Assembly (NCBI GenBank): GCA_024276825.1
Contig: JAJRWI010000037.1
Coordinates: 1 to 64,000 of the forward strand
Origin: an archaeon
Lineage (GTDB): Archaea; Asgardarchaeota; Thorarchaeia; Thorarchaeales; Thorarchaeaceae
DNA length: 64,000 bases
Direction of reading: 5' to 3'
Both the position numbers and the translations under genes were made by a program. This document shows, piece by piece, positions 4,415 through 51,589 of the stretch. Every line of letters starts with the position of its first letter. The stretch's first letter is position 1. The notes under the pieces are model-generated. The model ran no database searches. It was not told the origin of the DNA and was given only the letters and a program-made list of their open reading frames with translations.

Positions 4415-4548
4415 TGGTGCCGCAGGCGTGATTCGAACACGCGACTTCAAGATTTCTCATCTTGAAAGGGCGTAGACTTGACCCCTTAGAGTCCCAGATT
4501 TGGGAAGATTATGAGTCTTGCGCCCTAACCAGGCTAGGCCACTGCGGC
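4415..4548 (-). tRNA. tRNA-Met(CAT), elongator type, 56-nt canonical intron (4454-4509)
   Basis: G1-C72 acceptor, CAAGA-CT-CAT-A|intron|A-TCTTG, BHB helix CTCA/TGAG, encoded CCA. Confidence 0.93.
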
Positions 4549-19250: not shown

Positions 19251-20513
19251 TTAATACTGATGTTTCTCTAGCGTTCTAAGTAGACGTTTTATTCTGGAGG
19301 AATGTCTACAGCTAAATGATTTTAGAAACTCATTTAGGGTCATGATCACTTCTGGCAGCTTTTTTGCTATCTGAATGATTGCATCACCTGCAGTTTCTAA
19401 GTATTCCTTATTTTTGCTCGTGCAGATAATTTCTAGTAGGGCATTGACTGCAGACTCGTGATAATAATGACCGAGAGCCTTGATCGAAATTTGGCCCAAT
19501 CGTGGATCATTCAACGAGATTATTTCTTCCAGAGTCGATATCGAGTTAATATGACGTATTGCAAGATGGCAGTCAAGGCATTTTAGCATCTGACTGAAAT
19601 TATCAGGGTGTCCCTTGGCACGATACATGTCCAATGTCGTCTTTGTGACAAAACTGATTGTGGGCATTGCATATTTACTGCCAAGCCTCATGATACCCTC
19701 AAGGTCTTGTTTAATTACCAGATCAAGCAATTCTAGATATTCTGGAGCAGTTATTACTTCATCTATTCTATCATTGTATGTTTGATGTGAAGCCCGAACT
19801 CTGATGTGATGTTTTGATACGTCTGATACTGGTAATACAGATAATACAGACTCGAAGAGCTGAGGATTAATTAAATATCCCTTCACTCCAATATCTGAGA
19901 GGGTTCTTCTCCCAATTTCTGTGAGCCATAGATTAGTGATGTCAATAAGTCCTTGATAATAGAATAAATTTACACTTGATATTTGTTTATTTAGTATTCT
20001 AATAAATTGATTACGTATTTTAGGGGATGCATTATATTGCCCATCAATATTTAGGAAGAGCGTTTCCCCCATATTTAGGTGTTCCTCAGTCTTTTCAATG
20101 ATGAATTGGGTGACAAGTCCAGTTGCTGAGGAGTGTGATTCTGCTTCAGCTGCCAGTTCAAGTATATCTGATGTTGAAACAGGAATTGCCTCAAATCCTG
20201 AACATGAGAACAATTCGAAAACTATTTCACGATATTTCAATGGCTCAATCAGAGTAGTTTGTCCCCAAGTAGATATCGGGCTTTCATAATGCAGTTTTTT
20301 TGATTCAGCAAGACAGTTGATTGCATAGTGCCAATCATATGTCTGTTCATAGAGTGCAATAAGATCGATGACATCACGGATCCTCCTATCACCAATTGCA
20401 TTAATAATTTTTTGAGTATGATTCTTTCGCTTCATTTGCAATATTCTTTCACGACTTATTCTGATGATCCGTTTTCGATTTTCAGAGTCCACATCAATCA
20501 CGTTCTGAAACAT
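19251..20513 (-). CDS. Hypothetical protein with C-terminal HEAT-like repeats
   Basis: 420-aa ORF; SIKALGHYYHESAVNALLEII HEAT-like pattern. Confidence 0.65.
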   Translation of the reverse strand: MFQNVIDVDSENRKRIIRISRERILQMKRKNHTQKIINAIGDRRIRDVIDLIALYEQTYDWHYAINCLAESKKLHYESPISTWGQTTLIEPLKYREIVFELFSCSGFEAIPVSTSDILELAAEAESHSSATGLVTQFIIEKTEEHLNMGETLFLNIDGQYNASPKIRNQFIRILNKQISSVNLFYYQGLIDITNLWLTEIGRRTLSDIGVKGYLINPQLFESVLSVLPVSDVSKHHIRVRASHQTYNDRIDEVITAPEYLELLDLVIKQDLEGIMRLGSKYAMPTISFVTKTTLDMYRAKGHPDNFSQMLKCLDCHLAIRHINSISTLEEIISLNDPRLGQISIKALGHYYHESAVNALLEIICTSKNKEYLETAGDAIIQIAKKLPEVIMTLNEFLKSFSCRHSSRIKRLLRTLEKHQY

Positions 20514-20773: not shown

Positions 20774-20943
20774 ATTGTTCAATAAAAATGAAGTGCCATC
20801 AATCAAGTATTCTTTTTAGGATATTGGTGACAGTTGTAGGCGATTAATTAATGTAATACCAAATCAAAGCTCACAATAATGTTGGATAATACTCTTAAAT
20901 ATGCTGTTCTAAGAATAGAACTAAGTAGTTCCAATATTATATT

Positions 20944-21132
20944 ATGAGCGAGTGTGTCGTGTACACATGAGACAGTGAGAGCTGGATGATGAAAAGCCGG
21001 GTTCGCTCAGCTAAACGTCATCAGCATCTCTATCTCCTCAATGCATACCAATCTCATAGATGATGCGGTGATATTGACTGAGAGAACTTGAGAAGGATCC
21101 AGCACAGGTCTCGTCGCGACACTCTCGTGCAT
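20944..21132 (+). ncRNA. Unassigned structured ncRNA candidate (~190 nt)
   Basis: Long closing stem, nested ATGAGAC/GTCTCGT and GCTGGAT/ATCCAGC helices, UUCG-capped arm, GCATCTCTAT/ATAGATGATGC arm; G-U pairs favour + strand; GC-rich island followed by a T-run. Confidence 0.65.
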
Positions 21133-21183
21133 TCTTTTTTATAATTATTCCATTCGATAATAACTGTAGTAGTTGTAATACAA

Positions 21184-51484: not shown

Positions 51485-51589
51485 GCGACCGTAGTCTAGT
51501 TTGGTTAGGACGGAGGCCTCCCAAGCCTCCAACCCGGGACGGCTTTGTGCATACACGCCGCGGGAATTCAAATCCCGGCGGTCGCACCA
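51485..51589 (+). tRNA. tRNA-Gly(CCC) with 28-nt T-arm intron (51539-51566, position 53/54)
   Basis: GAGGC-CT-CCC-AA-GCCTC; BHB helix CCCG/CGGG, bulges GG|A and AA|T; encoded CCA. Confidence 0.92.

Follow-up and report, generated by a model that had tools for sequence, protein, structure and literature searches.

A structured RNA family of Thorarchaeia with a predicted base-pairing target in a transporter mRNA leader

The RNA gene and its family

The window analysed here, a 64,000-nucleotide (nt) stretch of thorarchaeial DNA corresponding to contig C28 in an assembly (G000) of 2.9 Mb and 98% completeness, contains a 670-nt intergenic gap bordered on one side by a HEAT-repeat-like gene (19251-20513, − strand) and on the other by an orphan gene for a 175-aa protein, P0001 (21184-21711, − strand). 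Within this gap lies what is almost certainly a genuine single-copy gene for a structured non-coding RNA (ncRNA), spanning positions 20946 to 21139 on the + strand and thus convergent with P0001. The gene was delimited by covariance models (CMs), and its ends were set from promoter spacing and a downstream T-run, the predicted 5′ start falling near 20946-20951 and the predicted 3′ end within the U-run. The RNA is ∼190 nt long in G000 and 165-207 nt among relatives. Its assignment to the + strand follows from the G-U pairs, the U-run, and a promoter box that moved together with the gene in one genus, g5, in which the RNA gene is inverted relative to its 175-aa neighbour yet still adjacent to it.

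At gathering thresholds, an Rfam 15 scan of the window returned five tRNAs only and no family at the RNA locus. At E ≤ 10, the best sub-threshold match in the region had an E value of 0.5, and two weak matches to snoRNA models appeared as well (SNORA49, E = 1.3; SNORD26, E = 2.3, the latter next door to the RNA). RNase P RNA and the RNA of the signal recognition particle (SRP) were considered as identities and discarded, both being located elsewhere in G000. An earlier, sequence-only reading of this DNA had recognised neither of these nor a tRNA or rRNA at the locus.

A blastn search among relatives yielded a single clear homologue, from the same genus, plus many matches of 16-26 nt to one short stretch. 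Since these short matches all adjoined homologues of the 175-aa gene, we extracted the DNA downstream of that gene in ∼40 genomes. The extracted loci share the same ordered blocks, namely (U)AUGAGUGUGUCGU, AUCUCUAUCUCCUCAA, usually ACCUCCA(A/G)GAUGA, and CGACACRCUCG(A/U)GCC followed by a U-run, between which the sequence is wholly different from genus to genus. A first covariance model, R1, was built from a single genus and detected the RNA in 62 of 86 genomes of the family, as exactly one full-length copy in each; a second, R2, built from 45 sequences, found one full-length copy per genome in 69 of the 87 genomes of the class, all of them in family f1 and distributed over 15 of 17 genera. No copy was detected when R2 was run on 125 genomes from 26 other Asgard families. 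The G000 RNA itself scores 36.5 bits with R1 and 84.8 bits (E = 6.5e-16) with R2, the match being full-length (model positions 1-200). The family, conserved and structured, is absent from Rfam and was previously undescribed.

The + strand folds with a minimum free energy (MFE) of −70.8 kcal/mol (z = −3.6 versus dinucleotide shuffles, 0 of 200 being as stable), compared with z = −1.1 for the − strand. The MFE fold in G000 is a single unbranched rod, and each homologous copy folds as the same long rod capped by an apical loop of 20-25 nt. Internal loops are small and vary in position, both in individual folds and in the consensus, leaving the apical loop as the only large unpaired region. When the 45 sequences were aligned to the CM, a fit that by its nature favours structure, 84.2% of the cells were paired versus 30-42% with partners slid by 1-3 columns, both-sided (compensatory) changes occurred at 58 of 63 pairs, and the covariation score was 0.43 versus 0.05-0.07 in the slid controls. 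A MAFFT alignment made from sequence with no structural model likewise predicted a 14-bp terminal stem, P1, with compensatory changes at seven pairs; in the CM alignment P1 (helix 1) is 98.8% paired, with double changes at 8 of 11 pairs. Given the size of the effect and the independent result for P1, we regard the rod as secure despite the model-fitted alignment. The strands of P1 lie at 20950-20961 (GAGUGUGUCGUG, conserved in sequence) and 21115-21126 (CGCGACACUCUC), both on the + strand, the latter followed by a conserved tail that reads GUGCA here and GAGCC or GUGCC in relatives. RNAalifold applied to the all-genera MAFFT alignment recovers P1 only, because the rod is not alignable by sequence. 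In an alignment at the level of one genus, the 5′ arm showed signs of a different, local hairpin. Across the wider set the rod is the better fit, though the RNA may conceivably switch between the two.

The sequence elements quoted in the sequence-only reading are all present where it placed them, and its claim of a highly structured RNA is borne out by structure far beyond chance in the 45 homologues. The 18-position pairing of the ends as well as AUGAGAC/GUCUCGU and GCUGGAU/AUCCAGC are all part of the MFE fold. What did not hold was the proposed multi-arm junction with a GAUGA/UCAUC arm capped by UUCG, which is 5.6 kcal/mol worse than the rod in G000 and departs from the rod that is the family consensus, and the proposed CUCAA/UUGAG pseudoknot, the partner positions of which are not conserved in homologues.

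In the alignment of upstream flanks, the most conserved element of the whole locus is GTTCTAAGATTAGAACTATGTA, nearly invariant in 45 loci across genera. Its counterpart in the window, GTTCTAAGAATAGAACTAAGTA at 20906-20927 (+), is a copy carrying two substitutions and consists of the palindrome GTTCTA-N4-TAGAAC, laid over a TAGAAC that resembles a B recognition element (BRE), followed by a TATA-like hexamer. The box has the hexamer TATGTA, and in every genus exactly 22 nt separate its end from GAGUGUG; the box is present at ≤3 mismatches in 70 of the 87 class genomes, and a reversed control is almost absent. This position suggests promoter function and leads us to place the start of the RNA at about 20946-20951. 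The TTAAATA box noted upstream in the sequence-only reading is not conserved. At the other end, the T-run that the same reading had pointed out is retained among relatives, the U-run TTCTTTTTT (21132-21140, +) following P1 in nearly all homologues, where it would serve as an oligo-T terminator. By sequence evidence, then, the RNA gene is its own transcription unit, with the box upstream, oligo-T downstream, a convergent neighbour, and inversion as a block in g5.

A second copy of the box, GTTCTATGAATAGAAC, is found outside the window at G000 C24:119889-119910 (within C24:118931-120461, locus L180:1432-2962), and many genomes have such a second copy. It follows the stop codon of an ArsR/HTH_20 winged-helix protein of 183 aa that has membrane helices at its C terminus, and precedes the gene of a surface glycoprotein, a C-terminally anchored protein of 308 aa with a signal peptide, many N-glycosylation sites, and a Thr linker. 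As the box is common to two transcription units, we take it to be a DNA element (promoter plus operator), and as the arrangement at the second box is kept in at least eight genera, the RNA and the surface glycoprotein are probably co-regulated.

The apical loop and its predicted target

The apical hairpin (21024-21066, +) presents a 22-nt CU-rich loop which, having no G, cannot pair with itself. It carries the near-invariant 16-mer at 21026-21041 listed above as the second conserved block, and within it the 12-nt stretch UCUCUAUCUCCU (21027-21038, +), hereafter the seed. Throughout the 45 homologues UCUAUCUCCUC is invariant, and the remaining loop and rod vary freely. The seed has a mean unpaired probability of 0.58, compared with 0.35 for the remainder of the RNA; its first three nucleotides lie within the apical stem.

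Shine-Dalgarno (SD) sequences are heavily used in G000, where AGGAGG, GGUGA, and GAGGAG are ∼10-fold enriched at −16 to −6 of long open reading frames. The lead to a target came from a partial model match in another genome: what the model had matched there was the reverse strand of a gene's start region, which bears UUGAGGAGAUAGAGAA. The gene in question encodes a solute-binding protein (SBP) of 608-610 aa from the SBP_bac_5 family (PF00496), which is family 5 of the binding proteins of ATP-binding cassette (ABC) transporters (peptide/oligopeptide/nickel type), and adjoins the gene of an ABC permease. In G000, the seed is a perfect 12-nt complement of AGGAGAUAGAGA in the leader of this gene (G000:C33:83316-83335, −). 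The duplex would comprise 12 contiguous Watson-Crick pairs at about −20 kcal/mol, and the paired stretch of the leader consists of the SD sequence plus spacer, ending 4-7 nt before the AUG.

This leader is itself conserved. SBP orthologues from ∼25 genomes and most genera share the arrangement AUCCGAUUCGACUCGG-(A)n-AGGAGAUAGAGAGAAUA-AUG, preceded by a CTTTTAT TATA box 24-26 nt before AUCCGA, and GGAGAUAGAGA, directly before the AUG, is invariant across 20 aligned leaders of many genera. In 18 of the 19 genomes in which both loci were compared, the longest uninterrupted duplex measures 11-14 bp; it reaches 14 bp in G003 through changes in the leader, and 13 bp in G013 through a C-to-U change in the RNA, giving a G-U wobble, plus a change in the leader. 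In G006, a member of genus g5 (RNA at C17:164812-164973, −; leader L195), the duplex is lost, the seed having three changes (UUCCCAAUCUCC) and the leader one (GGAGACAGAGA), which looks like joint decay of a regulator-target pair.

Several other features were observed at the SBP leader. Its start (G000:C33:83316-83375, −; L192:3328-3387, −; alignment A7) contains a conserved hairpin, UCCGA-UUCGAC-UCGGA. Upstream of the TATA box, ACA(U/C)AAC/G..CTTTTAT is conserved (A7 columns 1-16), and (A)TGTGT(A/G)T, further upstream, is common to many genomes; this conserved sequence may be a candidate operator for transcriptional control of the SBP gene.

The RNA and the start-site motif have the same taxonomic limits. 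The motif, AGGAGATAGAGA-N2-9-ATG, was present in 37 of the 43 family members sampled versus 17 of 157 genomes of other Asgard families, the latter being the level of a reversed-pattern control. Within genus g3, a subclade of five genomes (G004, G081, G082, G084, and G093) has kept the 175-aa gene with another gene directly downstream and no RNA, and the same five have neither an SBP orthologue at E ≤ 1e-60 nor the leader motif; we read this as a natural loss of both the RNA and its SBP partner. Eight other assemblies without the RNA retain the motif. In these, the 175-aa gene is missing too, so the RNA locus is probably unassembled.

Within G000, the SBP start window ranks fourth of 7376 loosely defined start windows for duplex formation with the 16-nt seed region (−20.1 kcal/mol; mean over all windows −6.9, sd 3.3 kcal/mol), and the three that outrank it lean on G-U pairs around GAGGAG...AUG strings. 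Perfect 12-mer complements are not rare within one genome, and the case for the target therefore rests on conservation and co-distribution. Three broader searches for targets were set aside: a duplex scan of G000 with 31 nt of loop was dominated by the tail specific to G000's own loop and by spurious internal ATGs, a genome-wide excess of TGAGGAGATAGA proved to be mostly coding sequence (Glu-Glu-Ile-Glu/Asp), and recurrent GGAGATAGAGAGTACATG sites lie inside genes.

A further match concerns the HMG-CoA synthase gene (C49:25833), which has a 16-nt perfect complement to the loop, UAUGCAUUGAGGAGAU, covering its SD sequence (G000 C49:25808-25835, +; L032:1499-1526). It uses the loop stretch AUCUCCUCAAUGCAUA at 21032-47, and ∼0.001 such matches would be expected genome-wide. 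In other genera only 8-11 nt around the SD of this gene match the loop, in a comparison for which the same-genus orthologue (G002) was cut by a contig end. As the 16-nt match is specific to G000's version of the loop, we do not count HMG-CoA synthase among conserved targets of the RNA and keep it as a possible lineage-specific lead. The UUCGAC of the SBP leader hairpin recurs in the conserved HMG-CoA synthase leader of most genera (...GACGUAA..GAUUCGACA...) and may be a shared leader element. An 11-nt seed complement, GAGGAGAUAGA, is located at G000:C72:795-813 (+; L224), where two translationally coupled genes meet, the second of which encodes an HdrB-like CCG-domain protein; this may be an off-target or plain coding sequence (…MEEIE*). 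In most relatives the loop has a second CU box, ACCUCCA, which resembles the anti-SD of 16S rRNA and may add affinity for other SD sequences. Since the extension of the loop in G000 matches the ribosome-binding region of HMG-CoA synthase, the set of regulated genes may be larger and may vary between lineages.

Turning to the neighbouring genes, P0001 adjoins the RNA gene in all genera, is all-helical, and is 55-65% identical across the family. It has no sequence match in Pfam, NCBIfam, or the PDB, and its AlphaFold2 model, which is of low confidence (predicted local distance difference test score 62), retrieved nothing in Foldseek at E ≤ 0.001. By eye, a stretch of the protein, GVSRGAFNRTLRQARRN, resembles sigma-70 region 4. 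Around the start of its gene, no complementarity to the RNA is conserved; P0001 may nonetheless be functionally linked to it. Elsewhere in the window, Rfam matches mark two tRNA genes with introns, at 4418-4548 (−, 131 nt) and 51485-51586 (+, 102 nt). The archaeal nature of G000 is evident from these intron-bearing genes and from matches, outside the window, to the archaeal models of RNase P RNA, SRP RNA, and small- and large-subunit rRNA.

Proposed function and competing explanations

A terminal stem, a rod, a G-free CU-rich loop, and a dedicated promoter that are all conserved indicate a base-pairing regulator of mRNA, and we consider it probable that the RNA is a trans-acting antisense small RNA (sRNA) that masks the ribosome-binding site (RBS) of the SBP_bac_5 mRNA. 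It would be transcribed on the + strand from its dedicated promoter and end at the oligo-U terminator, and because the palindrome overlaps the BRE/TATA region, a dimeric DNA-binding protein probably switches this transcription through the palindromic operator. The rod, which has the support of covariation, would close the 5′ and 3′ ends and present a single G-free CU-rich apical loop. From the complementarity observed, the seed in this loop is predicted to bind the SBP leader, and such pairing should exclude the small ribosomal subunit (30S) and repress synthesis of the binding protein. Activation of SBP is unlikely, as the SD sequence itself is covered.

Several points weigh against this model. 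The promoter, the ends of the RNA, and the RNA itself were deduced from conservation. Of the 183 12-mers that the RNA contains, 10 have a complement in the loosely defined start windows of one genome, which makes such matches no rarity, and part of the seed-leader match (GGAG/CUCC) is simply an SD sequence facing an anti-SD-like one. Since neither seed nor target varies, the two show no compensatory covariation of the classical kind (Watson-Crick to Watson-Crick), and the related genomes are not independent. Two genomes do not fit: in G015 (91% complete) the target motif is kept and the RNA was not found, and in G089 the RNA is present and the SBP orthologue was not found. Finally, a 200-nt RNA with a rod of ∼80 bp is unusually elaborate for a simple antisense RNA, and the strong sequence conservation of P1 is left unexplained. 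This last point hints at a protein partner of the RNA, which we consider plausible.

Taken further, that hint would make the RNA primarily a scaffold of a ribonucleoprotein, its function being protein binding at P1 and the CU loop (for example by a KH/S1-type, double-stranded RNA (dsRNA)-binding, or the 175-aa protein) and the complementarity to the leader secondary or incidental. Such a role would account for sequence conservation of P1 beyond the needs of pairing, for the conserved 3′ tail, for a long rod retained in every genus despite sequence drift, and for the orphan, highly conserved 175-aa gene that invariably stays next to the RNA gene, even where the latter is inverted. Yet no candidate partner emerged: the TROVE/Ro60 domain (PF05731) was not found in G000, whereas control genomes gave matches; a La search found no match in G000 nor in any control genome; and P0001 has no recognisable RNA-binding fold. 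It also fails to account for an invariant loop that exactly complements an invariant mRNA leader found within the same taxonomic limits, and we consider the scaffold unlikely.

Alternatively, the CU boxes AUCUCCUCA and ACCUCCA might imitate the 3′ end of 16S rRNA in a general way and exert global control by titrating either SD-bearing mRNAs in large numbers or a factor that recognises that end. Both boxes do resemble the anti-SD CACCUCCU at the 16S 3′ end of a relative, SD use is pervasive, and matches of 9-16 nt exist at several other start regions (for example those of HMG-CoA synthase and the HdrB-like gene). For such mimicry, however, CCUCC would suffice, whereas the 5′ half of the seed, UCUCUAU, is invariant and matches the SBP leader only; moreover, the second box is degenerate in G000 itself, and a single-copy RNA can hardly be expected to titrate hundreds of mRNAs. 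We judge this explanation quite improbable.

Poorer still are the prospects of a rod in the manner of 6S RNA or Y RNAs, bound to RNA polymerase or to a quality-control protein of the Ro type. The length of ∼190 nt, single copy, rod with closed ends, conservation of structure above sequence, and synteny are reminiscent of bacterial 6S RNA, and the conserved terminal stem, pyrimidine-rich loop, and U tail of Y RNAs; but there is no conserved central bubble, the apical loop being the only large single-stranded region, G000 lacks a TROVE protein, and the Rfam scan gave no 6S or Y RNA match. We think it very unlikely.

Hardly any weight is left for an elaborate C/D-box (or H/ACA) RNA guiding rRNA or tRNA modification, which in its C/D form was one half of the interpretation given in the sequence-only reading; the other half, a new ncRNA class, stood, as this is a conserved structured family with no Rfam match. 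The strings AUGAUGA, CUGA, and AUGAUGC do occur in the G000 copy, and there are the weak snoRNA-model matches given above, but the proposed C, D, C′, and D′ boxes belong to that copy only, their alignment columns varying in every other genus, none of the Rfam families reaches its threshold, and the RNA is three times the size of an archaeal C/D sRNA. Nor is there a conserved ACA after the stem: all homologues have the tail GAGCC/GUGCC plus U-run, and only G000 has the ACA that follows GCUGGAU/AUCCAGC. Conservation is likewise lacking for the proposed guides, and the conserved loop, tested in their stead, had no near-perfect complement in 23S rRNA and the assembled 5′ half of G000 16S rRNA; nor did RNAduplex pair it better than shuffles with the genome's own 23S and the complete 16S genes of two relatives, used because the 3′ half of the G000 gene is unassembled. 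We rejected the C/D interpretation on these grounds, that is, boxes, guides, and a pseudoknot partner confined to G000 together with a loop without significant rRNA complement. As an aside on the rRNA genes, the 16S gene of G000 (C42:1-846, cut by the contig end) and its 23S gene (C42:60183-63406) are ∼59 kb apart on opposite strands, and the 16S genes of two relatives carry insertions near their 3′ ends, that of G050 (L128) having an extra hairpin of ∼26 nt between helix 45 and the anti-SD and that of G021 (L129) an inserted segment inside helix 45.

The antisense model itself could be extended. In a tentative and on balance doubtful version, the RNA would be the hub of a thorarchaeial regulon, in which the operator co-controls the RNA and the surface glycoprotein, the RNA represses peptide uptake through SBP and, in some lineages, the making of isoprenoid lipids through HMG-CoA synthase, and the rod is a platform for a dsRNA-binding partner. 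Candidates for the protein binding the operator would be the 175-aa protein or the membrane-anchored ArsR-type factor encoded at the second box.

Relation to known regulators and significance

In its predicted choice of target, the RNA has a functional likeness to GcvB (RF00022), a bacterial trans-acting sRNA of ∼200 nt that depends on Hfq and uses a conserved G/U-rich single-stranded seed against C/A-rich sites at or near the RBS of mRNAs for the periplasmic binding proteins of ABC peptide and amino-acid transporters (OppA, DppA). These belong to the same protein family as the predicted target, SBP_bac_5. The likeness is one of function only, as the present RNA has a different fold and a G-free CU seed, and the Rfam scan gave no GcvB match. 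RsaE/RoxS-type sRNAs of Firmicutes, which are ∼100 nt long, pair several unpaired C-rich loop boxes with G-rich SD sequences; the pairing of a C-rich loop with an SD is alike, but these RNAs are bacterial, consist of multiple hairpins, and show no homology. With archaeal C/D-box sRNAs the RNA shares the AUGAUGA and CUGA strings in the G000 copy only, and size, fold, and rRNA complementarity differ.

Among archaea, the literature searched held no regulatory RNA with a defined target in the Asgard group. In Methanosarcina mazei, the independently transcribed sRNA162 pairs with an mRNA through a single-stranded region and masks its ribosome-binding site, most likely repressing translation, according to the abstract (PMC3510493). 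The two are alike in being archaeal sRNAs with their own transcription and RBS-masking base pairing, the latter predicted for the present RNA, and differ in that the pairing region of sRNA162 is a linker between stem-loops and that sRNA162 also acts in cis on a neighbouring gene. The seed of the present RNA sits instead in the apical loop of a ∼80-bp rod and would address a distant transporter gene; the two share no sequence or structure similarity, and sRNA162 is experimentally verified whereas the present RNA is known from sequence alone, its host organisms being represented only by metagenome assemblies. In Haloferax volcanii, s479 and sRNA132 control ABC-transporter operons (for zinc and phosphate), and s479 binds its target mRNA directly, according to the abstracts (PMC8155600, PMC6560208). 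Lineage, targets, and architecture are different here, s479 being matured by Cas6 and carrying a handle like that of a CRISPR RNA, and SD masking is absent from both abstracts.

We would thus assign the RNA to a known kind of regulator, the RBS-masking sRNA, and to a new family of its own. Archaeal sRNA-target pairs of known mechanism are few, and the locus described here offers a complete, testable unit drawn from comparative genomics alone, which runs from promoter/operator through structured RNA and seed to a conserved, predicted target site in the leader of a gene for nutrient uptake. The 69-member covariance model could enter databases as an RNA family and improve annotation of Thorarchaeia. 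If the predicted pairing is true, the archaea closest to eukaryotes have their own, independent counterpart of the SD masking by which GcvB controls transporter binding proteins in bacteria; and if the wider regulon should prove true as well, it would be the first defined riboregulatory circuit among these archaea.

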